From: Curvularia clavata
Taxonomy: Eukaryota
Assembly (NCBI GenBank): GCA_023920165.1
Contig: CP089280.1
Coordinates: forward strand, 1,054,001 to 1,118,000
DNA: 64,000 nt
Reading direction: 5' to 3'
The notes under the pieces are model-generated. The model ran no database searches. It saw nothing but the letters and a program-made list of their open reading frames with translations, and was not told the DNA's origin. The stretch's first letter is position 1, and every line of letters begins with the position of its first letter. Both the position numbers and the translations under genes were made by a program. Positions 25,678-57,906 of the stretch are shown here, in pieces.

Positions 25678-26273
25678 TGACGGCTCCCAATGAGCCACTG
25701 TATAAATACTTGTGACACTACATGAAGATCTGTTACCATATATGCGAACCTATGTACTCCAGCACTTGGAAATTTAGCGGAATTATCTTTGTACCGCACA
25801 TATTATAGAGTGAGTGCAATATCACTAACGCCATTGGTGTTAGCGATGGGTAGGTTGGAGTCAGTAGTCGTGCCATGTGATGGCGTTGGTTCAAGTGACG
25901 GTAATGTGGGCCATTGCAGAGTCATAGTGATACCAAACTTCGGTCTGCTTCGATCCGCCACGGTATTCATTGAGCTTTATCAGTCATACTGCAAAAATAT
26001 AATCCAGCACGGAATACCACCAACACTTTCTCACTAGCTCGCAACCATAGAATTACTCTCCTGGTTGGCATTTTTGGGTGGTTCGGTTACACGCAACCAA
26101 AGTAACAACCGTTGAAATTTCTCATAAATCCATCTTTCAGCTGTCAAAGAACCCTCCATCCTCCAACCTTTGTGCCAACTTGTCTTCCATCGGGCACCAA
26201 TATTCGAGACTCTGAACAACAAGCTATTCACTCTCATATCATCGTCCTCGACCAACGCCACCCGATTCCAGCT

Positions 26274-26648
26274 ATGGCATCAGATCCTGTCAACCAAAAT
26301 CCCTTCCGGTTTCTAGATCTACCCGCAGAGCTTCGTTGCCTTGTATACGAAAACATCGAACTTCCCACTACTCGGGAGATTCTATTCAGCACAGTCTTCG
26401 ATAGCGGTGAAGAGGCCTCACCTCATCCCGCTGATATTGCTCTTTTCAGACCGCGCTTTCCAATCGAGATCCTCATGACCTGTCGCCTTGTCAACACGGA
26501 AGCTCTTCCTATTTTCAAGCGCAAATTGGGAGTCCGAGCTCCTTCAGTAGTGAGCTTGTCTTTCTGTGACCGGTGCAAAACTCATTACGTACTTCATCAT
26601 TTCTGTCAAGAGATCGAAACCGTACAAATTAAACACAAGTTTTCTTGA
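26274..26648 (+). pseudogene. F-box-like protein N-terminus, apparently truncated
   Basis: PFRFLDLPAELRCLVYENI and ILMTCRLVNTEA motifs. The frame loses protein-like character after about 26530 and ends just before the PKS stop codon. Confidence 0.55.
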
Positions 26649-26664
26649 GAAACACTACAAATAC

Positions 26665-29600
26665 CTACTCAACAACCTTATCATCTTGCTTGACATCCAC
26701 CGCACGACTCAACATCGCAATCTTCCTACACAAGACCTTGATCGTCGAAGTCCCCATTACATCCAACATGGGCACATCAGCTTTGACTTCTCTGGCAAGG
26801 AACGTCCGGAATTCTATCGCCACCAGCGAATCAATACCGTTCGCGCTAATCGACTTATCCTCATCAATATCCGCCACTGCTACCGAGAGCAAACTCGCCA
26901 GCTTCCCTTTTACCGCCGTAGTAATAATGTCGGCTGCTTCGTCCAGTGTCTTGGATGCAGCGAGCAGAGCTTCAACCGGGACCTCGGTGCTTTCAGATAC
27001 AGCAGAGCCTATCAGGCTCTCACTGTTCACGTGCGCGAAGAGTGGGAACTTCATGAATGAGGGTGTGGGCATGCCCTTGGTACGATACTTGTCTCTATTC
27101 GCAAGACCAGTGACAATCTGCGTGGGCGGCTGCTGTCGCGCATCGATAGCGTATTCGAGAATTGCGTGCAACTCTTCTTCACGGATTTGCTCGAGTTCAA
27201 CGCTGACGCCTTTGTTGATAGCTACCCGAGAGGAGTTCTCGGCTACGTAGCCTACAGAGAGAATGGCGCCGACGTCGATGCTGGTTGCGGTGAGGCCTTG
27301 AGCGTGACGGTGCGCTGCGAGTGCATCTTGGTAGGTGTTGCCGGCTGCGTAGTTTGCCTGACCACGGTTGCCGAGGATACCAGTGGCGGAGGAAAGAAGA
27401 ACGAAGTGATCGAGGTCTGTTGGAAGATGGGCGTGGAGGTTCCAGGAGCCGAGGACTTTGGGTTTTACGGCAGCCATGTAGCTGTCGTAGGTCATGTTTT
27501 CGAAGATGGAGTCCTAGAGAGAACAGTTAGTTGGGTTCTTTTAGCGTAAACAGTTCACTTTGGGATCGACTTACTGAGAGTTGCATAGCTCCTTGGATAA
27601 CACCCTTGATGGGTGGCAGGGAAGACTTGCACTCCTCCAAGACCTTTTGGAGCTCAGTGGCGTCTGCGACATCGCATTTTGCGATGCGAATTTTGCAGCC
27701 CTGCTCAGCCAGGTGTTTTTCCATCTCGGCAACGGCAGGAGTTATGTTTCCGCTGCGAGATAAGAACAACAGGTTGCGAGTACCCCTGCCTACCATCCAC
27801 CTGGCGATACTTCGACCTAATCCTCCGAGCCCACCGCTCAGGACGTAAGTCGCATCCGGTCTGAAGGTGAATGGAGCTTGCTGCTCGGGAACAATAGGGA
27901 CAACATCGTCAGAATTTGGCACAAACACCATCTTGCCAGTTCCACGACCGGACTGCAGTGTTTGGAATCCCTCGACCAGCTTGGATAGTGGTGAGACTGT
28001 TGTTGGCTTCGCGGGCTTAACAATGCCCTCGCTCCAGAGGCGTATTGTATCGTCTAGACCTTGTTTAATCAGATGCGGTCGGTGATTCATCATTGTTACA
28101 AGATCAACACAAGTCATTGAGGTACCCATAAGTAGGGGTCGCAACTCGATCTTGGAGTTGGCCTGAATGTCTTTCTTTCCGATCTCGATGAAGCGTCCGA
28201 AGGGGGCAAGAAGTTCCCAAGAGCATCGCAAAGCCTAGTCTACTGTGTCAGCCACATGTCTAATGTGATGGGTCGAAGAGGGCTGTGGTCATACATCGCC
28301 GGCGAGTGAGTTGAGAACAACATCCACTCCGTAGCCGCCAGTCATGCGTCGAATGCCTTTCGCAAAAGTTAGGTCTCGGCTAGAAAAGATGTGGTCTTCT
28401 GGAATGCCACATTCTTGAACGAGTAACTAGCACCAAGTCAGTACGTGATTTTGCTCACGCGGGTGAATTAACAACTCACGTCCCGTTTCTCTGCTGTAGA
28501 GCAAGTGGCAAAAATCTCCGCCCCAACACTCTTCGCGTAATTGATAGCTGCTTGTCCCACACCTCCGGCTGCGGCATGAATCAATACCTTTTCCCCCTTT
28601 GCCAATCTCGCCACATCTCTTAGACCATACAACACAGTGACGTACACAGCCGGCAGTCCAGCCGCATCCTCGTAGCTCAAGCCTTCCGGGATCTTAGTCA
28701 CCACTGACTGGTCTACTCGGCCGAAAGTATGGAAGCAACCGACATGATCCAGGCCAGTGATATAGGTGACCCGGTCTCCAACAACTACATCCGTGACCTG
28801 AGAACCGACGCGAGAGATGACGCCAGACGCTTCGCATCCGATACTGTACGCCATATGCTCCCCCATCGCAATCATCAAGTCTCGGAAGTTGAGACCCATG
28901 GCTTTGATCTCGATTTCTACATGTGTGGGGTCCAGCGGGGTGTTGTAGACAGGGTCAGTGACCCATTGTAAGCGATCTAGCTGACCTGGCGATGCAGAAA
29001 CCAGTTTGACTGGGCGACCTGCGTCCTTCCAAGCGGTAGGAACGGGCTGTGGAGTACTGAATTGCGAGGCGAGGAAATGGTTTCCACCAAAACTCGGCTT
29101 GAGTCGACTGGTGAGGAAAGTTCCTGCTTTCAGGATGTACTCGCCCTGCATCTCGTCTTTGCTAACGGTGTTGGAGAATTGAAGCGCGCTAAGCTTGCAT
29201 ACCAACTGGATGAGATCTTCGGTGTCGGGCCGTGGACTTGCTACGGACAACGTGACGAGGTTCGCATCGTCCAAGTCTCGTTCCCATCGTACTGTGCGTA
29301 TGAGGCCGAGCGCCATGCCGTACTGCGGGTTCTCCATCATATCTCCTGTGATCCAAAGGAGGGCTTGACACTCCGTCAGCATCTTCCGGACGCCCTCGTA
29401 GTCTTCTGGTGTCAGGATTGACAAGACGGGATTCTCTAACTCCAGGAGTGAAACGCATAGAGTCTGGTTTAGGTCTTCGTCTTTCAGCTGCTGGACCGTC
29501 ATGATAGAGACATTCCTACTCCGAAGCGAATCTTTCAGTTTTTGTTGGAGTCCTATGACCAGATCACTGCCCGATACTTCAGAGGCGACGATGATCAATT

Positions 29601-32600
29601 TCTCCCTGGACACATCCAATACCGCATTCTGTTCCACGGCACGCGACACAAGAATGCTCTGCGTATGTGTTACAGAATCCTGCGCATCTTTCAACTCCAA
29701 CTCGACACCATCAAACCCTGCTTCTTTCAGCAGCGTTGCCCACTGATCTTTCGATGCAAATGGACACCACCGCCTCATCTCCTCTTTTGACAGCCACCAT
29801 CCACTTAGCTGTCCGAAAGCCAGTGCCGACCAGAAATAATCTTGCCTCATTCCTTCCTGGATCAGAATTCGGCCACCGGGCTTGAGTAGCTTTCTCAAGT
29901 TCGATAATGTAGCATGCAAATCCTCAGTAGCGTGAATCACATTCTGTGCGACAACGATGTCATACATTTCAGCTTCGAAGCCCTGACTCTCGACATCTTT
30001 CTCAGCGTGCAGAACCTTGTATTCGAACAGCGACTGCCAGAGCTTGAACTTCTCTCTGGCTTTTTCAAAGAAAGCAGAAGAGATGTCGGTGTATGTGTAC
30101 TGCAAGACACTAGACTGGAGGAGTTTTCCGTCGTCGGAGACGGGAGCCAGATGACGGATGATGGCTTCGGTAGATGACCCAGTTCCAGCGCCAACTTCTA
30201 GGACGCGAAGGTTCGTGCGGTTTTCACCGAGGATCTGGAGATATTTGGCTAGCAGCTCGGGCAAGTTTCCAAGACGCACAAGGTCTGCGTAGACTTCGTC
30301 GAGGATGTTGTCCTGGCCAAACATCAGGTGGAGCGGGTCAGTTTCGCCACGCAGTACAGAGAAAATGTTTGAGCCCATGCGATAAGCCAGGCGTCCTTCA
30401 GCCTTATACTCCTGGATCTGTTTGTACAGCTCGACTTTGGCTGCATCGTTGTAGCGAATAGCTTCAAAGTCGGAGCGCGAGACTGAAGAGATTTTGTCTT
30501 CACTAGTCCATAGTTCGAGTTGCTCCAGCCATTTGAGGTAGTTCTGTAGATGGCCTTGAGGGGTTCCAGGAAGTTTTCGATATGTGTCTAGGGCATCATG
30601 GACGAGGCAGAGAGTGGCCAGTTGTAGCCGTTGCACCCATTCGGCTGTGAGGCTATCTGACCGGACCGGACCATCCTCCACGACCAAGTCTGCTTGAGAG
30701 ATAGTCTCCAGATATACGGGCCACTTCACTTCGTGACACAACTCTCTACTAGTTGACGTGCGCTGATCTGCCGAGTCTAGTGGTGTAGCGCGAATACCCG
30801 TGACAGAAATTCTCGCATCACCAGTAGCCTCGTCCCACACGAGAACGTCATTGTCGTATTTTTCGAAAGCAACTCGCTCCGTTCGGCCGTGGACCTTGTA
30901 TTTGTGACCAGGTTGAGGACTCAGCTCGGCTGAAACCCAAACATCTTTGATGAATGTAGGCACTGCTGGGTTCTCCAGACTCGTGGCACCGAATAGATCC
31001 ATGATAGCAGCGAGAGCAAAATGTATCATACTGTCAAACGTGGCAGGGTGAATGAGATGTGGTGAAGCATGTTGCTTAGGCATTGACGCCGCAATGTCTG
31101 GCACAGTCACTCGTCCCAATACCGCTCCGCCTTTGTTGCCAGTGCCACTCACATCCGATCCGTTTCGGAATAGCGGGCCAAATTGAAGTCCTACGGTGGC
31201 CATGTTTTCGTATGCACGGAACATGTCAAATGTTGCCTGGCACCTACGCTCGGCCTCTTGCAGTTCTCGATGTTTCATGGCTGACTCCTCCCGAGCTTCC
31301 CGCCCACCATCAACTGGACCATCAGCCATAGCATACTCTACGGCAATGTATCCTGTACAGTGCTCAATCCAATCATCCCCTGCAGGGTTGTAGGATGATA
31401 TCTGGAATCGGCGCCATGCCTTTGAGACTGACAAACTCGATTCATCTACTCGATGCATCGAAATCACGACTTCCAGTCCCTCTTTGTTATCTGGGACGAT
31501 CATCGCACGTTTAATCGAGATATCTCTGAGGCGGAAAGAGTTGATGGTCATGCCTTCATCGGCAATCTGCTGGATCGCCTCTATAGCCATGATGAGGTAG
31601 CCAACACCCGGATAGACATACGAATTTGTAACAACGTGATCGCGCAACCAGGGCTGCTCACTGATTCGGAAGATGTTTCTCCATTGAGGGCTCTCTTTGT
31701 TCCAATCTGGAACGGGCGCGCCGAAAAGGTCATGACGAGGCGCTTTACGAAGACGATAATTGCGACTGAGCCGGCTTTCGTACCAGAGGAGCTGAGAGTG
31801 GTTGAAGGCGTAGCTGGGGACGTCGGTCAATAGGGCATGTGGCCGACTCAATGATTCCAGCTGAGAACTTTCGTTGATTTTCTGGATACTGATTGGGTAG
31901 CCTCGACACCAGATGTGGCCCAGCGCAGTCAATAAAGTATCCGGTCCAGGTTTGGAACGATTTAAAACGGGGAACGAGGTTATACCAGTTCCGCTAGGTT
32001 GAGTTGCGAGAATGTCTTTAATAGCGCTTTGGAGAGCACCATGAGAGCCAAGTTCCAGGACAACATCTGCGAAATGGTTACCTCCTTGGGTATCAACTCG
32101 AAGAGAAATCTGTCCCGACTGTGCGGGCCGGAAGCAAGTCGCTGTCATTCCATCAGAGAATCGAACTTGAGACACCAAGTTCTTGACCCAATATTCAGCA
32201 TTGAGAACTTCATCAGTTACGAAAGTCCCTGTCACCGTTGAGACCATCAACACGGTGTTGGGTTGGATAGATGGATCTGGTGAGAGGCCGTCTAGAAGCG
32301 CGCCATACTCAGCTGCAATATGATTCATGTGCGGTGAGTGATACGCCTTGCCAATCGGCAACTTCCTGACAAAGATTTGCTTGGCATGCAATATGTCATG
32401 GAGTTCCGAGATTAGATTCTCATCTCCGGAGATGGTGCAGTTCCTGGGACTGTTACTGCAAGCTACTACTAGAGTCCCTTTAGCAGCCAAGTCGTCCACG
32501 TAAGGTTGAGCTTCATCTTGGGATAGCCCAACAGCCAACATTGCTCCACTGCGTTCGCTTTGCTTTGCAGAGACTATTCCGCGGTAGTATGCCACACGCC

Positions 32601-34952
32601 AGGCTGACTCACGAGACAGTTTTCCTGCAGCATAGGCCGCAGCTATCTCTCCCGAACTGTGACCTACAACTCTAGATGGCTTCACGCCCCATGACCTCAG
32701 TAGATCAACAAGTGCGACCTGCACCGCCGTACAAGCGGGTTGCGATAACCAAGGTTCGTTGACATTGCTTTGCTGAGGAGTACGAGAAAGTTCATCGAGA
32801 AGAGACCATGTTGAGCCCAAGGATGTAAAGAATTGAGATGCTTCTTCCATGCTCCTACGGAAGACAGGGTAAAAGAAGAGTTCCCGGCTCATCGTAGCAT
32901 ACTGAGCTCCTTGACCCGTGAAGACGTAGGCGATAGATATGGGCCCGCGGGCTCGGAGAACTTTGGAATGGGCGTTGGGAAGGGCAGCAAGCAACTCCGA
33001 AGTGTTCCCAGCAAGCAGAAAACTGCGCCAGCTAAACTGCGAACGTCGATTCATAGTGTAGGAATAATCTTGTAGAAACGTCGAAGGATGTGTAGAACGA
33101 GATTCGAGAAAAGCGACCTGCGCTTCTGCATTCCGTGATATACCTGCTTCATCAAATGCAGAGAGACCGATGAGTTGGGGAGGGGCTGGGATTTGCTCGA
33201 CCAACTCCCAACTTCTTTGACTGTGACATCCATTGAGTCCGTTTTCAACTTCTGAATGACCATTTTGTGTAGGGGATGTTGATGTTCCGTTCTCTTCTAC
33301 TGCAGACCCGTTTCCATTTAACAGTGGAGGCTCGGACAGCAGATTGGAAGAGGCAGGGGCTTGCGCAGCATGAGTCAGAGCATCTAGCTCCTCCCTCGAA
33401 GGCGCTCTAATCGTGGTACGGTGATTGCCAGTCAACCCTTGTTCTTGTAAATAGTTGTATGCATCGTCAAGGATAGCATGTGCATTTGTCCCTCCTACTC
33501 CAAATGAGTTGATTGACACTCTGCGAAGGCCTTCCGTCGGCCATGGCACAGCTTCATTGGCGATAGAAAGATTCCATTTCTGGAACGGAATCTTGGGGTT
33601 TGCTCTCTCAAAATTTGCCTGTGGCGGTATGATTCCATTTTCTAATGCAAGAACGCTCTTGATGATCCTGCATACAGAAACGGTTAGTTTTGAACAATTC
33701 TTTGTAGATGCGGGAGAGTATCGCTTACCCAGCAACACCAGCAGCACCTTCCAGATGGCCGACGCTAGCTTTGACGGAACCCAGATACAATGGCTTATCT
33801 TTCCGCCTCGATTTGAATGCCTGTGCGACACCACGGGCTTCGATGGCATCGCCCTGGCGAGTTCCCGTTCCATGCGCTTCGACTAAGGTGGTGTCGTCGA
33901 AATTCAGCCCCGCAGAGGCGTATGTAGTTTTGATCAATCTTTCTTGTGCATCACTACTGGGAAGCGTGAGGCCTGGAGTACGGCCATCCTGGTTAACTCC
34001 TGTGCCACGTGCGACAGCACGGATGGTATCGCCATCACGAAGAGCGTCACTTAGGCGCTTAACGATCACGGTTCCAACTCCTTCTCCACGGGCAAAGCCA
34101 TTGGCGCGGTGATCAAAACTGAAACAACGGCCATCAGGACTGAGGAAGCCTTGATGAGACATCCCATTGATATCACCTTCACAGAAACATCACGGTTAGC
34201 TTTCATGGCAAAGTTTTTTCGTTTTTCGTCTTACCAGGGTAATTGAGTATGGTTACACCCGTAATAATTGCCATATCGCTTTCTTTTGTTCGTAAGCTCT
34301 GACTGCCGAGATGCAAAGCTGCCATAGAACTGGAGCATGCGGTGTCGACAGTTACACTTGGTCCTTTAAGATCGAAAAACCATGAGACACGGTTACTGTG
34401 CATGGAGTTGGTAAGACCAGTGACGCGATGCCTTAGCGTCGTCTCTGGATCACTGTTTAGTATAGCAAGATGATCATGGTTGAAGCCGGAAACGTAGACT
34501 GAAGTGTTGGATCCTGCAACTTGTTCCAAAGTAAGGCCACTATTTTCGAGAGCATGGTACACATTTTCCAAGACAACGCGTTGCTGCGGATCTAGTGACA
34601 TGGCTTCACCCTTGGTGATTCCGAAAAAGGAAGAATCGAAATACGCTGGATCTTCAGCGAGGAAGTGGCCACCTGAAAGATGTTAGATATCTATATGGTA
34701 TCCTAATTTCTTTGAATCTAGCCTGCGAAATAACATACCTTGAGCAGCATGTGTGCCGCCATGTTCAGGATCCGGATGATAGTGCCCTGGGCCTATCCGA
34801 TCCTCAGGGATTGGTGTATGTGCACACTTTTTCGCGAGCAAGAACTGCCACAATCGCTCTGTGGTGGATGCATCTTGTGGAAAGCGGGTTGCAAGGCCAA
34901 CAATAGCTAGTGGCTCTGCTTTCGGGACAGCTCCAGCTAAGCAAACTGTCAT
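26665..34952 (-). CDS. Highly reducing iterative type I PKS (KS-AT-DH-CMeT-ER-KR-ACP), 7 exons
   Basis: [46 protein letters not shown] and HPATFD; CMeT LEVGAGTG and [25 protein letters not shown] and NYAAGN; ACP GIDSL. Six GT-AG introns (e.g. 34673-34738, 34177-34234, 33668-33728) all restore the frame. Confidence 0.97.
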
Positions 34953-35892
34953 TTTTGAATTTGAATGCTATGAAAGTGATTGAAGATGGGTCTTGTCTCA
35001 AGATAACACCCGTAGTGCATAAAGTTTGCGGGCAGCGATGTTAAAGTAGTCCGTTTCGACACACCATATTATCCTCATGCTTTCCAGATCGGATATCTCC
35101 ATAAACTCCTACCTCGCTGGGTACTATTTAGTCCAATCGGATATCGCACCTACAAACTACTGACCTAGAACCATGAAACTGCACCGAAAGATTTCAAATC
35201 GACTATTACTGGTGGATTGAGCGACACAATGAATCACGTCCACGAGGGTCAAGTGTACTCCACTTTCTTGTCAGTGAGTTGCAGCCTGCCCACGCGCTCG
35301 GGCCGTTTTTATGCATCAAAAGGGCCGTTTACAAGGCCTGGACAGCTTCCGAGTAGCAAAAATCTTACCTCTCCTACATCAAAGCTACTGACATCAATTG
35401 TGTTCTGGAGGTCAATTTTTGTAGTTTTTACGAGTCTCACTATAAGCTCAGGTCCAGGTGTTGCGTTATCCACCCAGACGGTAACACTGAAATTCCAACC
35501 CTGGTCATGTTACTTTACCTACATACTTTGGATACAGATGTTCTTGGGTTTTCAGTGGGGTCAATCTAAATCTTGTTCTGTTCCGTAACAATCCCTGCTC
35601 TAGGTAATGCTTCCGTTCCAAGCTACGGATGCCACATGATCATTCCGCCTTTACCCCCGGCTTTTCTGGGACATGCGAATAGTCACGTATTGGGCAAGCT
35701 CCGTATCTGTACGATGGTGGGGTTTTCGCCTGGTTGAGGGAATACGGGCCGACTTTCGTATCCCAAACCTTCTCGCGTGCCTCGCGTCTTATAAGTAGAA
35801 ATTTCGTTGGAACGTCAGGTGACAAGCACCAACTGGAAGGAATGTTTTCCCACGCAACAGAAACAATCTGACAAACTTATTTGACACTGATA

Positions 35893-37530
35893 ATGTCTTT
35901 TGGACAACAGTGGCAATATCCAATGGACTCGGCATGGCTGATATCCTTTGTTTTCGGGGCACTCATAGCGACCATTCTCTTCACACACTCTCTCTCCTAT
36001 ATACGAAGCATTCGCCAAACTCAAAATGGAAAATTCGAGCCGCCTCTACTACCCTACTGGATTCCCTATTTTCAACACCTGCCTGCATTCCTTTTAAACC
36101 CGGCATCTTTGTATGAGGCTGGGAGAAGTCGCTTCTCTGGGCAACCCTTCACCCTCGTCCTGGCAGGCACAAAATTTCATGTATTCTCCTCGGTCGAATC
36201 TGTCAACCATGTATTTAGTCGGTCGAGACTCTTTTCTTTTGATCCCGTCATGGCAAGCATGATGGAGAACGGGGTTGACCTCCCCCCTCCGGATCGACCA
36301 AAGTTCCTGTCGTCAACGGTGGACAAAGCAGAGGGAAGGTTTCTGACTGAAAATCACAACATATGGACGAGATATCTTTCGGGAAAGCGTCTCAGTGGCG
36401 TCATGGACATTTACATGTCTGCGCTGCCTCCTATCTTGAAATCAAGTCTCGATCTGTCGAGTGATCAGTGGCAAAAGAAGAGTTTGTACCCATTCTTGAG
36501 AAGAATCATCTTTGAGACGAGCGTACAAACTTTTTTTGGTCCTCGATTGGCTCAGTTCTGGCCAACTATGTGGGATGACTGGAGAAGATTCGATGATGCT
36601 ACTTATATCGGTGTGCGATCCAATTGGGCGTTCAAATTACAGCCGAAGATTTATAAAGCCCGCGAAAGAATGTTCCAAGCATTCGAGCGGTGGTTGGATG
36701 CGGCAGAGGACTACGAGTGGGATAATGCCGAAGAAATCTGGTGTGAGAACTGGGGGCTACGTCTGAACTACGAGAGAGACGTATTGGGCAGACAATGTAG
36801 TTTCACGAAACGGGGAAGAGCATGTCTGCAAGCTAGTTTTCTTTTTGTGTACGTATTGAGAGACTGCCACAATAACAAAACAGTCCTAATCAATAGTAAC
36901 AGAATCGTAACGAACGCTGCTCCGATGGCGACTTGGTTTGGGTATTGCGTTGCGTCAAATCCCTCTCGCCTGACCGAGTATCGTACCGCTACTAAACCTT
37001 TCATCCTCACCTCCCCTACGTCTTCAGATTTAGGTTCAACACCTCATTTTGATCTGCCCTCCCTTATCAAAGAGCCTTTCGTTCACTCCCTCTGGCTGGA
37101 AGCACTGCGACTGGGAACCATGTCTGCAGCTGCACGAGTTGTGACTCAAGATACCGTCCTCGAGGACTATGTGCTTCGGAAAGGCTCTGTCGTCCTGATG
37201 CCGGTACATCTCATGCACTTTAGCAAGGAATTTGAGCCAGGTGTGAAGAAGTTTCAACCAGAACGGTGGTTGGTCGAAGATGCGGATAAATTGAAACGTC
37301 AGAACATGGCGATGCGCCCATTCGGTGGTGGGACGAGTCTGTGCTCAGGAAGATATGTAGCAGAGATGGAGATCTTAGGTGTTGTCAGCGTGCTGGTGGA
37401 AATGTTGGATTTTAGATTCGAGGATCAATCGGAGGATCACTGGGAGTTCAATCCTAGAAGCATTGGCGTCATGGCGCCGAAGAAGGACGTCATTGTTTGG
37501 GTAAAGAGCAGAGATAAGGTAAGCACATGA
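35893..37530 (+). CDS. Cytochrome P450 with a CYP7/8-like I-helix
   Basis: N-terminal TM anchor, PPLLPYWIP, EALR, PERW, heme motif PFGGGTSLCSG. 54-nt intron 36849-36902. Confidence 0.93.
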   Translation: MSFGQQWQYPMDSAWLISFVFGALIATILFTHSLSYIRSIRQTQNGKFEPPLLPYWIPYFQHLPAFLLNPASLYEAGRSRFSGQPFTLVLAGTKFHVFSSVESVNHVFSRSRLFSFDPVMASMMENGVDLPPPDRPKFLSSTVDKAEGRFLTENHNIWTRYLSGKRLSGVMDIYMSALPPILKSSLDLSSDQWQKKSLYPFLRRIIFETSVQTFFGPRLAQFWPTMWDDWRRFDDATYIGVRSNWAFKLQPKIYKARERMFQAFERWLDAAEDYEWDNAEEIWCENWGLRLNYERDVLGRQCSFTKRGRACLQASFLFVYVLRDCHNNKTVLINSNRIVTNAAPMATWFGYCVASNPSRLTEYRTATKPFILTSPTSSDLGSTPHFDLPSLIKEPFVHSLWLEALRLGTMSAAARVVTQDTVLEDYVLRKGSVVLMPVHLMHFSKEFEPGVKKFQPERWLVEDADKLKRQNMAMRPFGGGTSLCSGRYVAEMEILGVVSVLVEMLDFRFEDQSEDHWEFNPRSIGVMAPKKDVIVWVKSRDKVST

Positions 37531-37769
37531 ACCAGCCAAGTTTTTCTATTTATTCGTTGCTGGCCTCTGCATTCTTCCTTTCTATCCCCTCATAGCCGTT
37601 CGAACTTAGTGAAGTACAATTTCTAACATCTTCCAAACCCAATATACGGTATGAGCATTCTGTTTCTTTGGTACAGCAGGAACTAGATTCTTCTTGTCGT
37701 CCTCAGCTTCTCCTTGTACATGCTGGTAATTATGGAATAATTCTTTAGCATGTGCGTGGCGTTCCGTTT

Positions 37770-38746
37770 TCATGATAACTCCGCTAATTCTCTGATCGTA
37801 TCTGCGATGTGCTTCATCAACTGCCTCCCTCTAGGAAAATCATGTCCGAATTCATGGTGAATCTCGTCCACCTGATGCTCTTCGCACAGCTCGACTAGAT
37901 GCTTGCCGTGATGCGGATCTACCATATCTTCGGCCATGCTTCTGATATGTAGGGTCGGGATATCAATCAACGGTGGTTGCAAATTCTTTCGCTCCCATCT
38001 GCATAGCCCATACTCGCCATCGCTGAGAAATGGGGTGCCATCTGCCATTTTTCTTCCCTCGAATCTGTTCAATAGCCCGAGTAGTTTTGCATGATCCACT
38101 TGATCCTCTTCGCTGACTCCAGGCTTGTGGCGGAGCGCGCTAGGACGAAGGAACATTTCCTGTGCTTCTTGAAAAGTTTGAGAAATGTCGAAGTGGCCGT
38201 CGCTTAACTCGACATCATCGACATGGAAAATACGCAAGGGGGAGGCGCCATTGACGAAGACCGCGAAGCGAAATAAGGGCTCAATGTATGATTCGGATTG
38301 AGCAGCGTCAATGATCAGCTCAGCGGCTAGCGCTGCTCCACCAGAGTAAGCGAAAACCCCATCAAAGGGGCCATCGCTTTTGAGAATATGGAGAAGTTCT
38401 TCGTGCGTTTGTAGGATAGATTTAGGGCTCAATGGGTTGTAATATGTGTACAAAGGGAGCTTAGAAAAGTCGGATGTGTGTAATGACCAGTTTCCTATTG
38501 TAGTGATCGAAGAATCGTCAATAACGTGCTTTCCGTCGTAACTATTAGACTTGTCTTACCTTCAGTGTGTCGGACGGTACCCTGAACAAAGACCCATTCA
38601 AAATCTTCTAGAGCTGCGCGGATAGGTGCTGTCTGCATACGAAAGATCTGAACTTATCATCAGCAGGTTGGACAGTAATAACATGGACGCTTGGTATTAC
38701 ACACCTCATTGTTTGAGCCTCTTCCGTGGAGGCAAAGTATCTTCAT
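37770..38746 (-). CDS. FSH1/DUF341 serine hydrolase (LovG-type polyketide-releasing esterase)
   Basis: MKILCLHGRGSNNEIF, GPFDGVFAYSGGAALA, IPTLHI..D, GHDFP. Two 5' introns. Confidence 0.88.
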
Positions 38747-40448
38747 AGTTACTAGCTCGCCGATGTGGAAAGGGTACTGAACTACAAGATCTCTGTTCGG
38801 TGGTAGTAAGAGGCCTTAGGTGGCGTGGGGATATTTTAGGGCTTCATCAAAATGGCTCGGACTTGATTTCTAAACGAATCTAAACAAATTATACGTGGAG
38901 AGTAATGGTTAGGCCAGTTCAGCAAGGTTGGCAGCAGAAGTGGGGTTGCAAACAAAGGGATTCATTGGTTAGTGATCTATTTTGTAACTCATCTACATAT
39001 GTTCAGACATGTAATTGAGCCACCCGTGCTCATTCTCCTTCACAAATATATCAAAGAAGGTCTATCATATATGCCGCTGCAATTCACTCTTGTATTGCTC
39101 TTATGTCAGTTCAAGATACAAAATATGACAAGACAGTCCAAAGAGAAACCATCTCTCGTGTATTCACCAAGCACTTGACCAAGATCAAGGATTTGAAATA
39201 AGCATGAGTCTATGAGAGCATACTCGGGGCAAAGATACCCAGATTCCGGCTCATTTCAAGGCGAGACGTCAGGAGATCACTTCAAGTGCGAAAGTCAAGT
39301 GCCACTCGTGTTGTTGGCCCAATCAGCCGGCAAGTTTGGGCTCCGTTTGGCAAAAATCAAGGAATGAACGCTCTACGCTAATCCTGCAACTCGGTTCGGA
39401 AAGGCCTATGAAAACATGATATTTCATTAATTTCTCCGGAGCTGTGCCCCACAAAGCTAGAGTCCAATACGTGAAGGATCTAGACCCTATTCTCCTCAGC
39501 ACTACAACGATTCATTGTAGGCATTGAGGCATAGATTTTCGTGCGAGCTAGGCGCGGTGTGTCAAGACTGGGAGTACTTCGGGTCGGCCTACCTACTTCT
39601 ACGAGAAACTGTGGGGGGTGGAGTAGTTGTCGATTTGAAACGTCGTGGCTGTAAATACATGCTATGTAGTATACAGCAGCATCTTCGTACTTGCATTAGT
39701 GCCCGGACGTTGCTCCATGCTTACAAGACTGGAAGTGGAGACCCCACTTGGGCAGTACCTAGTTTTGCTGGCCTCGCACTAGTTTCGATTCACGGGGGGA
39801 ACGGTGCAGTACCCGATGCAGCTTCCTGAATCCCGGCTTCAGGTAAGTTTGAGTGACACTAGACCACGTGAAATTTATTGACTATGCAGGACGTAGTGAG
39901 GGCCACTCTTTGAGTATTGGGTATTAACATGTGCCTCCAATCATTCGACAGTGTCGAATGATTGGTTGTTGCAAAGATATCTCAGCTTCCAGATCTCAGG
40001 CTCTACTTGCTTGTGGGAAAAAGCTTGCCAACCAGCAAGTTAAACAAGCAAACGCAGCCAAGCAATTTAAAAGCATATACCCTGGAGGCCAAGACTGTCT
40101 ACAGGTCTATGTGGTAACGCTAAATTAGCTGCCGAAGTTGAACCGTTTACACAACAACCCTTACTTGCGGAAGAACTTGACAACTGCTGATGGCGGCGAG
40201 CTCGAAGATGCTGATGCTAGTTTTTATGGAAGATGATTCACAAGCTAGACTAAAATGACGCAATGCTCCGATGTTAAACTACATGGTGTAGCTCTAAAGG
40301 TGTCTTCTCGGCGGTTTACCATGCAACGGTCCGACTATCATGCGGTCTTTCACAGGGATCACGCGAGCTCTCACCTTAAGCTCGTATGCACACTGCTGTG
40401 TATCATAGTCTCTGCCCTCTGGGTTGTGCGGGCGTGCTTTACAACGCA

Positions 40449-42233
40449 ATGACTATGTCTACTTCCAAAACTATATCCGCAATGCCACAAAACTCGAAAC
40501 TCTGGTGGCAATCTGCCATCGGCTACCAAATTTGGCCAGCATCTTTCAAAGACTCGAATAGCGACGGTGTAGGCGATATCAATGGAGTCCTCAGCAAGCT
40601 CGACTATCTCCAACTACTTGGTGTCGATCTCATCTGGTTCTCTCCAGTTTATGACTCTCCTCTCAGAGATATGGGCTATGATGTCTCGAACTATGAATCA
40701 ATTCATGCGCAATTTGGCACCCTCGCTGATATGGATAATCTTATCCGAGAGGCTAAGAAACGGGATATCAAGATCATCATGGACTTGGTCGCGAATCACA
40801 CATCTGACAAACATCACTGGTTCCTTGAGAGCTGCAAGTCACGATCAGGGCGGTATAGTGATTGGTATATCTGGCGAGATCCAAAGTACGATAGCGAGGG
40901 AAACCGGCAGCCACCAAACAACTGGCGCACTGGGTCGCGATACGGAAAGAGCACATGGAAGTATGTGGCCGAAAGAGATCAGTACTACTTCTGCTTTGGA
41001 ACTTCGTATCAGCCAAACTTGAACTGGTTCTGCGAGGAACTTAGACGTGCAGTATATGAAAGCGCGGTGAAGTTTTGGTTGGACAGGGGCGTGGATGGAT
41101 TTCGAATGGATCTGGTTGGGTTATATTGGAAGGATCCGTCCTTTCCAGATGCAAAAGAAGAGTACCCTGGAGAAAAATTACAGCCTCTTGACGGAACACG
41201 CTGCTTGAATGGCGAAGAAGTTCATTTCTGGCTAAGAGAAATGAAAGAGAGAATTGTGCACGACTTTGGGAATGAGGTGGTCTTGATTGGGGAATTGCCT
41301 ATGACAGACCGAAAGACATTTCTACGATATATTAGTCCCGACTCAAAAGAGCTAGAAATGGCTCTTGACACGGACATATTTATCACTGGTAATGATTGGA
41401 AGGATGGCCTGTACGAACTCAAGCGTCCAGAGTTACCACTACTTAAAGATGCTGTTCAGAAGACGCAAAGCCTTCTCGACGATGGAGGTTGGCCTACTGT
41501 ATTCCTCGAAAACCACGATTTCGCTCGTAGTGTCTGCCGCTTTGGACCAGGCGAAGGGGTCTATCGTGAAGCTGCCGCGAGGATGATGGCTCTCTTGGCG
41601 GCGACACTTTCTGGAACCCTATTCATCTATCAAGGCGAGGAAATAGGAATGACTAACGTCCCATCGTACTGGGCCCGAGATGATTTCCAAGATAACGCCG
41701 ATCTTGAGCATATCGAAGACATTGATGCAACCAAAGACCCTGCTGCGGTGGAAAAGTCCGTCACTGCGCTGGCGACCTGGGGTCGAGACAACGGAAGGAC
41801 GCCGGTTCAATGGTCGAACGAAATGTATGCTGGTTTCAGCGATGTAAAGCCCTGGATCAGAGTTATTGATAACTACACTGATATAAATGTTGCCGAACAA
41901 CTGGGAAAGCCTGATAGCGTGCTTTCATTCTGGATAAGGATGATGAAAGTGAGGAGAGAAATGTCGCAAGTGTTGATGCGCGGGTCTTTTCGTCTCCTTG
42001 ATAGAGACAACCTCAGTGTGTTTTCATACTTGAAGACAAGCACCGACGGAGAGACGGTGATGCTGCTGATGTTCAATTTCTCAAGCGAGGAGGTCCAGGT
42101 TCCAAACGGGATTGGGACTGATCCGATGGAACTCGTCTGCACAACGGCAGGTGCTTCGACAAACAGTAGCCTAGGAGAAGGACATTTACAGCCTTGGGAA
42201 GGTCGCATGTACCAGCTGACTGCGAAATCGTAG
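40449..42233 (+). CDS. GH13 alpha-glucosidase/oligo-1,6-glucosidase-like enzyme, intronless
   Basis: WW..YQIWPASFKDSN.DG.GD, DMGYD, DLVANH, QPNLNW; catalytic motifs GFRMD, IGE, NHD; YQGEEIGM and RDNGRTP. Confidence 0.93.
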   Translation: MTMSTSKTISAMPQNSKLWWQSAIGYQIWPASFKDSNSDGVGDINGVLSKLDYLQLLGVDLIWFSPVYDSPLRDMGYDVSNYESIHAQFGTLADMDNLIREAKKRDIKIIMDLVANHTSDKHHWFLESCKSRSGRYSDWYIWRDPKYDSEGNRQPPNNWRTGSRYGKSTWKYVAERDQYYFCFGTSYQPNLNWFCEELRRAVYESAVKFWLDRGVDGFRMDLVGLYWKDPSFPDAKEEYPGEKLQPLDGTRCLNGEEVHFWLREMKERIVHDFGNEVVLIGELPMTDRKTFLRYISPDSKELEMALDTDIFITGNDWKDGLYELKRPELPLLKDAVQKTQSLLDDGGWPTVFLENHDFARSVCRFGPGEGVYREAAARMMALLAATLSGTLFIYQGEEIGMTNVPSYWARDDFQDNADLEHIEDIDATKDPAAVEKSVTALATWGRDNGRTPVQWSNEMYAGFSDVKPWIRVIDNYTDINVAEQLGKPDSVLSFWIRMMKVRREMSQVLMRGSFRLLDRDNLSVFSYLKTSTDGETVMLLMFNFSSEEVQVPNGIGTDPMELVCTTAGASTNSSLGEGHLQPWEGRMYQLTAKS

Positions 42234-43012
42234 CCTTTAAGGGATCTCTACACACTAATTGATCTCATGGAACACAACAGCATGGCATTGAATGCGTTAT
42301 CTAGGAGTAACAAAATCGACTTGTTCCAAACTTTATTCTGATACATCTGGCACTTTTAGACAATTCTTTAGGACCATAAAGAAATCAACAACGTATCATG
42401 ATAACCACATGGACTTCCAGAGAAGCATTGAGGTGATGAACAGGGGCACGTACGGGGTATTGATATTCGACTCTTCCTGCCACCTCGGGGCCCTTTACAA
42501 TTTGAGATGCGACATGACAGTCTAAGAAAGTTATGAGCAAGCTAAGTCTAGGGCTTCAAGAAATATAATTGATATCGAGACGGTCTAAATTATGACCCAA
42601 TCCAGAGACGATTCAAACAGCTAGCACAGCCTTCACGACCGGGGCTCTTGCACATTACGTAGACAATTCCAATTAGCTAAACGATACACAGGTTAGCTTA
42701 CTTATGTAGGGTTGCGGAGTTTTCGGTCAATTACCCCAGTGATCGATGGTAGCCGTAAGTCGGCCCGAGGAGTACGGCGGAGCTCGTAACAGTGTTATCC
42801 GACAAGGAGCAGAACCCATGCACGACATTTAGCGCATGCGTGTCAGCTGCTTGAACCAGGCTTGCGACATTTATGCATGAAATATTTCTTTGCTTTCTAG
42901 GGTCTCTAGTACATCCGGTTCGGCGGTGATGAAAGAAGGATTAGTCCTTGAAATAGACGTCGTACAAATCACATTCCAATAACAGATTTGCAAGCCCCAT
43001 TGTATCAATGCA

Positions 43013-43905
43013 ATGGAGCAAAGCTCACTTGCAGGAAAAGTGAGTATGCAACTGCCTACTGCGTACTCAGTCGCGGGATGATGTAGCTAACAATCTCGCT
43101 CCTCAAGGTTGCCATAGTTACTGGAGCTTGTTCAGGTATTGGGCTGGGAACTTTGAAGCTACTTTTATCACACAGAGTGAAAGTCGCCTCATTCGATATC
43201 ACGAAGGTATCACCATGCGAGCATATCGATGCTATCCACGTGGAATGTGATGTTTCTCAACGAGAGCAAGTGGAAAAATCTGTGGCCGCTGTTTATGACA
43301 AATGGAAAAGAATTGACATTCTCATCAATTGTGCTGGAGTGCTTGATCATTTTGGTGAGTCCCCATCCTCACTCTTAGGCTCCTAAAGCCCATGAGATCT
43401 TCTGTTCCTTACAAATGACATTTGCAATATTCTAGCGCCAGTAGCTACCACTAGCGACGACGACTGGCAACGCTGTTTCGCTGTCAACGTGGATGGGCCA
43501 ATGTATCTCATGCGCGCTTGCATACCTCATTTTCTATCACAAGATACCGGTGGGCGCATCGTCAATATCTGCTCAACCGCTTCGATTAGAGGAGCTGCTT
43601 GTGGCGCGGCCTATACAGCTTCTAAGCACGCTCTTCTCGGTTTGTCGCGGTCCACTGCGTGGATGTATGCTAAAAAGGGTGTACAATGCAATGCTATTCT
43701 ACTTGGGCCGACGGGTGACACCAATATCACCAAGATTGAGGGTGAATGGGACAATGTCGGGTTTGAGCGATGTCAACCATATGGAAATTGTTTGCCCGAA
43801 GTTTTAAAGACTGAGCAAGTTTTACCCACCTTGCTCTATCTATGTACCGCTCCCGGGTTGAATGGAGCTGAACTAGCTTTAGACTATGGATTATCTACAG
43901 CATGA
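43013..43905 (+). CDS. Classical short-chain dehydrogenase/reductase
   Basis: TGACSGIG, INCAG, YTASK. Introns 43040-43107 and 43355-43435. Confidence 0.9.
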
Positions 43906-43987
43906 ATGCCAAAACTGTTTCCGTTATGTGCCATAGAAACATGAGTAGATGTCCATGAGAAACACCGAGTCCATTCCAAACTCAGGC

Positions 43988-45180
43988 CTACCGGAACACC
44001 AGCATCTCTCTTTCCCACAAAGCTCCTGTGGCAACACCTATTGGTCCACCAAGTATCAAATACCACAGCAGCTTCAAGCAAAATGACCCTAGTACTTCTG
44101 GTGATTCAACGCCGCTGCGAGCTTGAAAGTACAGAGCAATTGCCCAAATTGCAGTGCTGAGACCTCCGATTATGCCGTCCCACTGCAACAGCCATTTTCC
44201 TCCTTCAAACGCATCTCTGCATTTTATTCCACTCCATGGAGAAGGTGGAACAAATAGGCTTACTAATCGAAGTTTGTGATAGTGAGGCGCAGGAGTCTTG
44301 CGGATCTTCTGTAATGCGCGAACGCCAAAGGAGAGAAAGATAGGGATCCAAACCGAGGCTACAGCCGTGATAAAGGCAAAAGCATAGACTGGTCTGAGGT
44401 TGGACAAAAAGGGCTCGGAATATGCATCCTCTGGTGTAGACACTGTTCCACTGTGACCCCACCAAGTGACCAGTAGGAAATGAAGTAAACTTATGTAAAG
44501 GTTCCACTGCTGATACAACGACGCAACAATGTGTTTTGTGTTGAATCTAGACACACATATTCCGGGCATCGCCATGATGAATAAAGGCAAGACGTTGCCC
44601 AGTAAGAAGCTCCAAGGAATTGCCCGGAGGTGGCTTGTTTCAACCATAAGACTTTCTCGTGTGGTTGCGGGAGCTGCAACCGCCAATCTAATTGCCAGAT
44701 AAAGCGAGGTGAAGACAGCGTGTGACTGGTTGTAGATGAAGATCCCTGGGATGGTAATCCTATAAGCATAAGCCCAGATGATCAGCAGTGCCCAGTAACA
44801 ATATCGATGAAGAACTTGTTATTTGCTTACCAAGACATCAATCGGCTTCGACTATATTCTCTCAAGCTTTCCAGCACGATCAAGATCCATGATGAACACC
44901 ACGACACTGCAAACCAGAAGCCCACAATATTTACATCTGGCTGTGCGAGATTTTCACAAAAGATCAGTTGAAAAGAAGCGACCGCATTGATTTGAAGATC
45001 AGCAACTGGGATACGCCCCTCAGAGATTAGAGTGCGAAGGGGTTTTCCTGCCGGCGTAGATCTGGTGCTAATTTGACTTTCGAGGCGCCCTACAAGCCCG
45101 TTCGAAGCCGCGAAGAGGTGTAAAGATTTGAAGCCGAATAGAGAGAGTAGAGCGCATAATATGGCAGCAACGATTTGCAT
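43988..45180 (-). CDS. Multi-TM membrane protein resembling the CtvD/AurD/AscI epoxide hydrolase/cyclase family
   Basis: Intron 44760-44830 joins RLMSW|ITIPG. Many hydrophobic helices. WILIVLES, IPWSFLLGNVLP, LLQWD and C-terminal GP....LWERE resemble the family as I recall it. Confidence 0.6.
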
Positions 45181-46876
45181 GACTAATATGGGCAATGAAC
45201 TGCTGATTATAAGGAAATGTGAAAATTCATGTGGTTTATATTTTTGGGGTCAAGAAGGCTTTTTGCTCGGGACATACACCCCCGACTGCACAGTAAACAT
45301 GCGTATCACATGTGCAGACTATCGGCTCCACTACAGGCAGATGATGCAGGGATATGGCCAAGTAAAGTAGTGCGGACAAGAGGTGGAGAATAAGTACCGG
45401 ATCACAATGTAAAAACGCCCGATTGGTGGCATTAGCTCGGCTAAGAACCTCTCGGTCAAACTCTTCTCAGCTTCATGTTTTTTGAATACCCTTTTACCAG
45501 ATCTTATCACGTCTAGACTTTTGCTAAATCAAGAAGCTTACTGTCTCCAAAAAAGCTCCAAGTCGTAATGCCGCTGAGGAAAGATCATATCCTTGTACAC
45601 AAAATGCGTCAAACATGCTAAGTGTGAATGCATAGGAAGATTCCTGTTACGAAGAATGCATTTGCTGCATAAAGAAAATCAAAGAAGGATTACTTATGAG
45701 TAAGAGGTCAATTGAACTCACCGGGATAGGTACCCACTCCCTACATAGCGTACTCAATGCACAAACCTGTACGAAAACCTATGATTTCTAATTTTTGAGC
45801 CAAAAAAGCTAGCTGTTGTTATAGAAATTAAGTGGTGGGGAAATTTTTACGGCTATATCTTCCACCATGAATAGTTCGACCAAGGTTGCAAGCCTGATAA
45901 TCCAAGATAGCGGCTCATTCATGAATTAGAGAGTTTTCCCTGGGCTTTTTCCAACACTTCCAAGCATCACGTTTCTCGTTTGTTGCATCCTTTCCTGTAA
46001 ATCATGTCGACGTCGTCTTTCTCTCGGCTCCTGTTTCTGTTCAATCCCATGAGGGGATTTTCGAACAGCAATCCTTCTCCTTTCTCACAAGCTCACTTAC
46101 AACAATTCGTGGAACTGATTAGCAGCATCTGGATGGTTGGTATACTATCCTTGCACGGTAGCCGTATTCCGTACCTGGATCTTCCTAGTCCAACAGATGT
46201 CTGTTCATCTTACCATGCGTTGTTGTGATCAGCATAGGTGGGAACAGGTTTGTGTAGCAAAAGGGGCCTGATACATATAAATTAATTGATGAAAAGTATC
46301 TAACACATTGTATTGTTGGAATAAGACGCACAATAGGTCCTCGAAAGTCCCATTCACCATCAAATGTGAAGTATTGGACTGCACGCATGTTTCATGTCAG
46401 ATTATTAGTTTCTAAATCAGCGATGTAAAGTACTGGATTTGTGACAATATAGCTGATATATCATATTCATAAGAGTGTTAACTTCAATAGAGACGATTGA
46501 ATCATGGAGAGAATGTCCAAATGGGCTGAAAGATCCATTGCCGTTCGAGATCACGTGATGCCATATGCAGATAATGGCGGCAAATCAATGAACAGAAGGA
46601 CACGCAGTTGCTTTACAAGATGAGGATTCAGCTCACTATCAGCCTCCAGTTCCGCCGTGTTCGATCTCGTCGTCGCCTGTTTCACCTTTTTGTTCAAGGA
46701 AATACAAGAATAGTGAAGGCGACAGAGTAGCGCCAAGGCGGTCGGGGAAAGTGGCGCCGCTAAGCCCGAGATTCTTCTAGCTCTTGCGACGCGCTCACCA
46801 CCCGCGCGCAACTCCCAACTTTATACCTAGATCTAGGTATCCACCAGACCACTTTCAAGACAACCGACGCGCCACG

Positions 46877-55600: not shown

Positions 55601-57906
55601 TGCGCATTTCCGTGTGTGTGGGGGGAATGTAGGGCTGAGGACGCCAAACCCCTTTTGACCCACATTTCTGGTCGTTTTGGGACAGGCTGCAGGGACGATG
55701 GAAGGCGCCACAATATGCATCTTACAAACATCCAACAGATGGGAAATTGCATGGGAACCATTGAAACGGGCAGAAGAGGCACAGTCAATCTCTGTGGCAC
55801 AGCACCCCACGCCTCTGTGACGGCCACACTGAAAGCCTCGGCTGTTACCTTCCGGATTGAGATTGCAGTGCAAAGGGAAGCCGCTAAGCGAGAAGACGCC
55901 GCCGCCAAACATGTTTTCAGAAGAGGGTTTTGACACACACAGGTGGAACGATGTCTAACTGCCGAAATGTGCATGCAATGGGGCAGTACCGTGAAAAAAG
56001 CGCAGAGGCGGCAGGGGCAGTGGACCCTGTTTGCAGAATTTCTATTCCTGGTTCTGGCGCCATGACGGTACCAGATTTACGTGCACGGCGGGATACGTCA
56101 ATGGCACTGCTAGACGTTGGTCATTGCAGCTTTAGCAACTATGGTCACCCCCAAAGACAGAGCCAGTGAATGCTAGTTGGTGTGGCGTGGACATGGCCGA
56201 GGCCTCTATGACGAAGGTGCGAGTGGTTTGTCCAAGTATGGTTTGTATTGAAGCGTCTAGTCTGGTCGCGACTTGGGTCATGTACGACAGAGGCATGCCC
56301 AGGAGCCAGAGGCGCTGTACACACACGGGCGAGAACGAGTTTGCAAATGTACTATGATGTGTTCGTCGCCTGATTGCCTGGCCGTGGTGGCTAAGAGAAG
56401 TCTGCCGTCAACCGACAATGGTGCTCGTGTCGGGTAGAGGTTAGGCCCATGCTGTGGGCAGCCTTGAGCAAGGAAACGGGTATAGTGTTATTGCTTTCTC
56501 GTGTCAATCGCGCACTAGCGGTACGTTGGCCTCGATGGCAGGCGGGGTAAGCAGGCCCGTGATGCTTGTGGTTTGGATGAATATGCCCAACACCAGCTCG
56601 GGCGTAACTTTTGGAAGTTGGACTCGCTGCGTTGGCAAAAGCAGGCTTTGGGCGCGTGATTGCTGGTTTTGAGCGTGGTCGTGGTGGCGGGATGCATTTT
56701 GCGCTGGAACCTTGTCAGCCCGGAATAGCAACCGGCGGATCGCCCGAGCGGAAATTGCGCCCACGTATGTACACGATAAGATTGTCACACGGGGAGATTC
56801 GGTTCCATGTAGGTACGCAGTCGTCGTAGACGCCAGGCGCGTACGGGTAAAGAGAGAGCAGAGGATGCGCGTATAGCACTGCGACGCCGTGTGCAAGGAG
56901 GCGGTGCAGTGCCGTCTGTTCCTGTGGTGCGAGGCTATTACTAGCTGGCTGCATGGCCGCTTTTGGCAGCCACGCTGCGCCCCTGAAAAGCCACGAGATG
57001 CAGCTGCCGCTCTAGGACGTGCCAGGCATCCCATCCATCACAACACAACACAACAGCACCAACACCACGACGCCTGTCGTCCATCTTCACCGACCGTTGC
57101 TGATGGCTGCGACTGGGCGCCAAGTCTCTGCTAAGTCTTGCACATTGGCACAAAAGGCGTTCTTGGGGCTGACGTTCTAAGTATACCTGTCTGCATCGGG
57201 CAACGCCCACTCAAGGAACACGGCGTGCCGGCCAATCAGCACCACGCCGCCGCTCTCTACCCTCGCATCTGCCATGTCGCCGGCTGACCAGGCGGGCAAC
57301 CCATCTGTCACGACCATTCGGGCGGCGGCAAGCTCCCTACTGGATTCGGCGCTGCCCTCGTAACAGTCAGCAAGCACACGGCCCTAAGACCGTTGCCATG
57401 CACGCTGTTGGTCGCTCTAAATGAGCCCGGCCAGGAAGCTCGGCATCCTTGAACGAGCCGCCGTCTCGAAGCGTCCTAGCTGGCCTCCTTATGATTAGCC
57501 CCCAGTGTGGATAGCTCGCGCGAGCTGACTTATTTGCCAATACAACGTTGCAGACCTAGGGCCGTCCACGCGAAATGGCCTGGTTCGTATTTGCAGAGAG
57601 CCCATGATGAATCAGGCGTCGACAGTGGGACCAGCTAAGGCGAGCGGGTCGTAATGATCGGCAGGACAAAGCGCCCACACTACACAGCAGACGCCGCGGC
57701 AGGGCGGTTCATGCAGGTCCAGGTATAAGGATGCCCGCCCTCCCTGCTAGACTCGCTTTCTTCTTGGCCAGCTTGCTCATCTTCGTTGCAAGCAGCTCAC
57801 ATTCGCTTTGCGGCTACAGTCACTCGTTTTATACCCTACCAACACGGCCCATTGCGTTTTTATACCAAACTATACTTAATATTCCAACCCCCAATTCGCC
57901 AACACC

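Follow-up and report, generated by a model that had tools for sequence, protein, structure and literature searches.

A probable treconorin-family treA–E cassette with an added short-chain dehydrogenase gene in Curvularia clavata

The closest described relative of the locus considered here is the treconorin cluster, treA–G, of Trichoderma afroharzianum T22 (Yan et al., JACS 2023, PMC10682982). In that system, TreA and TreC together place a C16 trimethyl polyene on the 4′-OH of trehalose, other mono- and disaccharides giving no product; TreB and TreD together, but neither alone, generate a trans-fused 5/7 carbocycle; and TreE cleaves the 1,1-bond of trehalose in vitro, acting on compound 7 and leaving a glucose ester, compound 2 (PMC10682982). 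This five-gene cassette is enough for compound 2 in Aspergillus nidulans, and TreG and TreF oxidise and methylate C-17 to give treconorin (PMC10682982). The authors propose a (4+3) cationic cycloaddition, with support from density functional theory (DFT), and the idea of a TreB–TreD complex is raised in the same paper. Homologous clusters have been reported in Bipolaris sorokiniana, Zymoseptoria tritici, Cercospora zeae-maydis, Fulvia fulva and Trichoderma (PMC10682982; Fig. 2A, Table S10). The conserved enzymes named there are a highly reducing polyketide synthase (HR-PKS), an alpha/beta hydrolase, a cytochrome P450, an alpha-glucosidase and an AurD-like protein, and compound 2 was suggested to be common to the clusters of other species. 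Here, we describe a six-gene locus at positions 26665–45180 of a 64,000-nucleotide stretch of Curvularia clavata DNA (assembly GCA_023920165.1, contig CP089280.1, positions 1,054,001 to 1,118,000; hereafter the window), whose gene set consists of the same five conserved enzymes plus a short-chain dehydrogenase/reductase (SDR).

We conclude that the window very probably carries an intact treA–E cassette of the treconorin family together with a lineage-specific SDR gene, the chemistry being assigned by orthology. We read the region 25600–47000, built six gene models and assigned domains with Pfam. An earlier, sequence-only reading had described an intact HR-PKS gene divergent from a P450 gene, followed by genes for an FSH1-family hydrolase, a glycoside hydrolase of family GH13, an SDR and a membrane protein. 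The models and Pfam matches bear this out: all six genes have the place, order and orientation claimed, all frames are open after removal of 12 GT-AG introns, and the genes are physically clustered within 18.5 kb. To compare the locus with others, metagenome contigs were scanned with a P450 alignment, yielding 55 candidate stretches and 10 loci (L001–L010), of which L009 is of the Trichoderma type. Nine of ten published primer ends match L009 with 0–3 mismatches at the corresponding genes, treF included, and L009 was thus taken as a close stand-in for the characterised cluster; the treG primer found no match there (7 mismatches). Relative to L009, the window proteins are 53% (PKS), 46% (P450), 63% (hydrolase), 34% (membrane protein) and 54% (GH13) identical. 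In Table S10, B. sorokiniana proteins A, B, C, D and E are listed as 52.85, 46.00, 63.16, 33.87 and 50.67% identical to those of T22 (PMC10682982). For three values of that table, the proteins identified in this work give the same figure at two decimals (61.565, 58.140 and 46.004); the P450 of T. guizhouense came close without matching exactly, at 46.20 vs 46.00. The sequence-only reading had recognised no such gene combination and had offered the locus as a candidate undescribed pathway. That claim falls for five of the six genes, as the same five-gene set is already published and reconstituted as treA–E (PMC10682982), in substance the case that the reading itself had named as refuting novelty. 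Five of the six genes are known already; the SDR is the sole part without a published counterpart in the text of the paper.

The HR-PKS gene, the treA orthologue (26665–34952, minus strand; seven exons, 2642 residues), encodes KS, AT, DH, cMT, pseudo-KR, ER, KR and ACP domains, with each catalytic motif present. Its product is 53% identical to the PKSs of L004, L005 and L009 over about 2620 residues; per domain, identity to the L009 enzyme ranges from 44 to 66%, and the active-site motifs are shared. The treB orthologue (35893–37530, plus strand; 527 residues) has one in-frame intron of 54 nt (36849–36902) and encodes a P450 with an N-terminal membrane anchor; its identity is 73.0% with the B. 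sorokiniana protein, 56.5% with that of C. zeae-maydis and 45–46% with those of Trichoderma. An existing C. clavata record (P0154) is 99.75% identical over 406 residues; this 422-residue model lacks an N-terminal stretch of 119 residues, membrane anchor included, that is present in the window protein and its homologues. The treC orthologue (37770–38746, minus strand; three exons, 284 residues) encodes an FSH1-family alpha/beta hydrolase with Ser94 and His261 kept. It is 63% identical over 286 residues to the L009 gene, on which the treC primer falls with 0 mismatches, and is the best-kept window gene in this comparison. As was shown for the Trichoderma enzymes, the HR-PKS would make a C16 trimethyl-octaketide chain that carries three C-methyl groups and has four or five double bonds, and the hydrolase would act as a transferase, moving this chain from the ACP to the 4′-OH of free trehalose to give compound 1.

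The treD orthologue (43988–45180, minus strand; two exons, 373 residues) encodes a membrane protein with five hydrophobic segments and no Pfam match. It is 34% identical over 370 residues (E 2e-69) to the L009 gene at the treD primer site. Within a TreD family of 221 representatives, Asp61, Glu104, Arg107, Asp311, Trp322 and Arg367 are conserved. An AlphaFold model of L009 TreD (13365–14426; predicted local distance difference test score 91.7) gave no clear match to a known fold in the PDB. The published similarity of TreD to AurD is about 21% (PMC10682982), which is the basis of the AurD/CtvD-like label given to the window protein. If the mechanism follows the DFT proposal, the P450 would hydroxylate C-7 and epoxidise C-8/C-9, and the membrane protein would then guide a cationic (4+3) cyclisation to the trans-fused 5/7 carbocycle, with a water quench at C-15, yielding compound 7.

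It is also conceivable, but in our view unlikely, that these diverged orthologues do something else: the chain could leave as an acid or another ester, undergo epoxidation and close into a tetrahydrofuran or pyran ring in the manner of AurD and CtvD. The distant kinship of TreD-type proteins with AurD (~21%) would fit such a route, as would the low identity of the window TreD to the Trichoderma type and the altered GH13 pocket described below. Yet the release chemistry is decided by the hydrolase, and its gene is the best conserved of the set; a GH13 enzyme whose triad is intact would have no purpose unless the substrate bore a sugar, and the locus has no glycosyltransferase; and none of the six genes encodes a flavin epoxidase of the AurC/CtvC kind, which ether formation of this type requires. 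The sequence-only reading had favoured a free polyketide acid and a cyclic ether. Both are unlikely, because the orthologues give a trehalose ester and a 5/7 carbocycle instead. Its broader expectations hold up as activities of the tre orthologues: chain off-loading by the hydrolase, oxidation or epoxidation by the P450, cyclisation under the guidance of the membrane protein, and a real role for the glucosidase.

That role would be the next step of the trehalose-ester pathway. The treE orthologue (40482–42233, plus strand; intronless, 583 residues) encodes a GH13 alpha-glucosidase, assigned by identity and phylogeny, that keeps the catalytic triad Asp221/Glu282/Asp357 (numbered from 40449). 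It would cleave the 1,1-bond of trehalose in compound 7, leaving the 4′-D-glucose ester, compound 2 (C25H40O10). Such trimming of trehalose to a glucose ester explains the missing glycosyltransferase. The protein is 79.0% identical to the B. sorokiniana copy. In a tree of 47 rows chosen from 133 aligned GH13s, the cluster copies from Bipolaris, Fulvia, Zymoseptoria and Trichoderma form one clade with it (100/99). Ordinary fungal GH13s lie outside that clade, including a second F. fulva enzyme, whose branch is long. An Asp60/Arg415 pair closes the pocket of exo-acting GH13s, and this pair is kept in the window enzyme (positions via alignment to 1UOK). At the position of Phe163 of Bacillus oligo-1,6-glucosidase, the window enzyme has Gly. 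Among the 133 aligned homologues this position is Phe in 62 and Cys, Gly, Ala or Ser in 71; it is Phe in all 16 rows outside the TreE-like clade and non-Phe in 29 of the 31 inside. We infer that the closed subsite would take the free glucosyl unit, with the smaller residue leaving space for the acylated half. Beyond position 163, the subclade of the window enzyme has additional pocket changes, listed below. A small residue replacing Phe163 in cluster-linked GH13s should be useful for further mining. TreE-like GH13s with a small residue at 163 also occur in Xylariales and a lichen fungus (P0028, P0034, P0040, P0042, P0045, P0031).

The glucosidase is evidently part of the cluster, because its adjacency to the P450 and the metagenome loci both show co-conservation. 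The nearest GH13 and P450 homologues of the window proteins come from the same organisms and, in many cases, from contigs equal in length. Among 13 named genomes in which both were seen, 12 have the two accessions at a distance of 2–3, namely those of five Bipolaris species, four Trichoderma, Acrodontium, Extremus and Exophiala aquamarina; the exception is Lecanosticta. The cassette thus extends past the published hosts, as the P450 and GH13 genes are also neighbours in four further Bipolaris species and in Acrodontium and Exophiala. In the metagenome loci, the FSH1 gene is present in 10/10, at only 32% identity in L010; genes for the PKS, P450, hydrolase, membrane protein and GH13 are all present in five, and most of the others are cut by contig ends. 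L001 (10561–18108) shows an inversion of the hydrolase–GH13–SDR–TreD block with respect to the window, PKS and P450 being unmoved. The sequence-only reading's picture of a single cluster is borne out: the adjacent accessions and the loci show co-conservation, and the spliced contigs described below fit a transcribed cluster. The opposite view, that the cluster proper consists of PKS, P450 and hydrolase only, and that the GH13 and downstream genes serve sugar use and lie beside it by chance, might draw on the nearest solved relatives of the GH13 protein, which are ordinary alpha-glucosidases and sucrose isomerases, and on L. acicola and L010, where the GH13 gene is not beside the P450 within the data seen. 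We regard it as highly improbable given the adjacency in 12/13 genomes, the separate GH13 clade with its changed pocket, and the finding that TreE acts on compound 7 in vitro (PMC10682982).

Two further observations concern the distribution of these genes. L010 (1–732 and 8096–21203) contains a variant cluster in which the PKS gene lies downstream of the P450 gene on the same strand, with a second P450 and a TLC-domain gene upstream; a contig equal to it in length is the source of a TreE-like GH13 (P0053). In Extremus antarcticus, the TreE and TreB proteins (P0144 and P0285) fall in 90% clusters with Trichoderma proteins, are nested among them in the tree and come from a short contig, which suggests gene transfer or contamination.

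Several observations weigh against the assignment to the treA–E family. Identity to the characterised type is only 53% for the PKS and 34% for TreD, and the programme of an HR-PKS can change over distances of this size. The window GH13 pocket differs from the Trichoderma type by a two-residue insertion and a Tyr at the Phe144 position, and by Cys for His161, Gly for Cys at 163 and Asn for Asp169. The L. acicola GH13 gene sits on a different contig from its P450 gene. Agreement with Table S10 is also incomplete: with proteins of other strains, Z. tritici gave 52.41 vs 52.87 and three Trichoderma GH13s gave 52.1–53.3 vs 50.67. Finally, no Dothideomycete tre copy has been assayed, and the sharing of compound 2 is only suggested in PMC10682982. 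We nevertheless consider membership of the treconorin family, with steps up to compound 2, to be very probable.

How far would the pathway go beyond compound 2? The window does not hold the full treconorin cluster, as treF and treG are absent from it. A scan with a TreB profile and the heme motif, rather than with TreG itself as query, found no second P450 in the 64 kb; the other heme-motif match is antisense to the PKS. The treF-like open reading frame (ORF) of L009, encoding the methyltransferase, had no tblastn match in the window. With one P450 and no TreF match, the locus would stop at compound 2 or a derivative of it, unless these genes are located elsewhere in the genome; and without TreG and TreF it would not make the C-17 methyl ester of treconorin.

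The SDR gene (43013–43905, plus strand; three exons, 247 residues) lies outside the published treA–G set. It encodes a classical SDR that keeps the whole catalytic tetrad, Asn109-Ser138-Tyr151-Lys155. An Asp at the position of its Asp39 usually marks NAD(H) use, and this residue suggests NAD(H) as cofactor here. In the main and supplement text of PMC10682982 we found 0 mentions of SDR, dehydrogenase or Curvularia; Fig. 2A and Fig. S1 may draw an SDR. We propose that the enzyme probably oxidises compound 2 or its precursor. In such a fifth step, an NAD-type SDR would oxidise one hydroxyl, turning the C-15 alcohol into an enone or, less likely, acting at C-7/C-8 or the freed anomeric carbon. Should the first four steps hold, we lean slightly towards a tailoring role for the SDR, with the allylic C-15 alcohol as the most plausible group to be oxidised. 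C. zeae-maydis and L. acicola have homologues at 61–62% identity, separated from the cluster P450 by 3 and 2 accessions, respectively, so that the gene is kept beside the P450 in two Dothideomycete orders. In L001, the SDR is 83% identical and remains between treE and treD despite the inversion. The window SDR gene is spliced in the same runs as the cluster genes. Alternatively, the SDR may have no part in the pathway, either as a passenger or as an enzyme of housekeeping or detoxification, and the end product may simply be compound 2; this would change only the fifth step and leave the cassette assignment as it is. We give this explanation real weight, if somewhat less than an even chance. 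The five genes alone are enough for compound 2 in A. nidulans, no SDR was found in 9/10 loci, several of which are cut short, and no Bipolaris SDR appears among the 120 listed of 497 matches. Related SDRs occur in fungi where no linkage is shown (those of Teratosphaeria nubilosa are on a different contig from its P450), and the nearest solved structures are generic SDRs with no substrate named.

Putting the SDR and the GH13 pocket together, we offer a tentative proposal, which we hold with less than even confidence: in leaf-spot Dothideomycetes (Curvularia, Cercospora, Lecanosticta), the TreG/TreF ending may have been replaced by an NAD-dependent SDR and a reshaped TreE pocket, giving an undescribed oxidised hydroazulene glucose ester, e.g. 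a C-15 enone. If this is true, the enone would be an electrophile and possibly the active form, with the trehalose ester as a stored precursor. Treconorin showed no antimicrobial or herbicidal activity (PMC10682982). The proposal could explain this, as well as why plant-associated fungi keep and transcribe the cluster.

Evidence on gene structure comes from contigs of four public runs, which we take only as a guess to be RNA, aligned to 26500–46400; the two fullest runs are from one study, and the contigs are a mixture of near-identical and roughly 86% identical sequence. Eleven of the 12 predicted introns are skipped at the predicted places: 5/6 in the PKS gene and 1/1, 2/2, 2/2 and 1/1 in the P450, hydrolase, SDR and membrane protein genes. 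A 53-nt PKS intron is the one not among the joints shown. Four intergenic bins are without cover in any of the four runs, and one X3 contig is unspliced through the PKS 3′ end. The contigs show that the cluster genes are spliced in close relatives; they do not show co-regulation.

A candidate shared regulatory site is found in the divergent upstream stretch between the PKS and P450 genes (34953–35892, no strand), which contains two CGGNCCG sites, at 35299 and 35745. Further copies lie upstream of the GH13 gene (40327) and the SDR gene (42761), and none was found upstream of treD in the window. The cluster upstream stretches thus hold four copies vs 0.42 expected, a count reached in 1/1000 resamples, for a motif chosen after looking; 7/9 window copies lie within the cluster. 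L001 has the motif at matching places, and the L009 upstream stretches have none. No unbroken Zn2Cys6 motif was found in the window. As a lead, CGGNCCG may be the site for a Zn2Cys6 factor encoded elsewhere. The four gaps between or upstream of cluster genes contain short ORFs only, without tblastx match to the 10 related loci.

The sequence-only reading had placed the cluster between housekeeping genes. This does not hold for the immediate left neighbour, a weakly 2EXR-like ORF; an NDUFA12-like gene lies one further out. The 2EXR-like ORF (26106–26648, plus strand; E 0.0023, below the cut-off) ends 17 bases from the PKS stop codon and may be a truncated gene at the cluster edge. Elsewhere in the window, 62001–63998 (minus strand) encodes the C-terminal part of a nonribosomal peptide synthetase, with two carrier domains and a condensation domain, which we take to resemble the end of an extracellular siderophore synthetase. 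A tyrosinase-domain gene (57880–59079, plus strand) lies near it. An NLR-like gene with NTPase and TPR repeats, in two overlapping frames, stands next to a DDE transposase (2347–4340, plus strand, and 5221–7011, minus strand).

The core chemistry of this family, remarkable as it is, has been published; it comprises transfer of the chain to trehalose, the proposed (4+3) cyclisation and the formation of a glucose ester with no glycosyltransferase involved. What the present locus adds is a copy from the Pleosporales that is intact and spliced and has one more conserved gene, the sixth, undiscussed in the text of the paper. In the part of the open-access literature that we surveyed, the matches for later work on treconorin are the original paper, two reviews that mention it (PMC12142736, PMC12790562) and entries on citrinovirin. 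By title, among the matches listed, no paper there describes a product of the tre cluster in Bipolaris or Curvularia, and no C. clavata title concerns the cluster. The locus thus provides a handle on two questions left open in PMC10682982, the products of the plant pathogens and the purpose of the compound.

Compared with known systems, the window is most like the treconorin cluster, with which it shares a divergent PKS/P450 pair followed by a convergent hydrolase, a TreD-type protein and a GH13. It differs in lacking the TreF O-methyltransferase and the TreG P450, in having the extra SDR, in gene order (A-B-C-E-SDR-D vs A-B-C-D-E in Trichoderma), in having more introns, and in the further changes of its GH13 pocket. 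Among the homologous clusters, that of B. sorokiniana is the nearest in sequence (P450 73%, GH13 79%), although it comes from another genus and no SDR was seen for Bipolaris among the listed matches. The C. zeae-maydis cluster shares the P450 (56.5%) and the SDR (61%), and that of F. fulva the GH13 (61.5%). LovG/FSH1-type release hydrolases resemble the window enzyme in the FSH1 Pfam match and the kept Ser and His, whereas the orthologue TreC uses trehalose as nucleophile. The aurovertin and citreoviridin clusters have in common with the window an HR-PKS with cMT and a membrane protein of the same broad family. Those pathways lead to ethers, with a polyene pyrone as the substrate that a flavin monooxygenase epoxidises. 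The window, in contrast, has a P450, a sugar-accepting hydrolase and a glucosidase, with no AurC/CtvC-type flavin monooxygenase among the six genes by Pfam, and its orthologues form C–C bonds.

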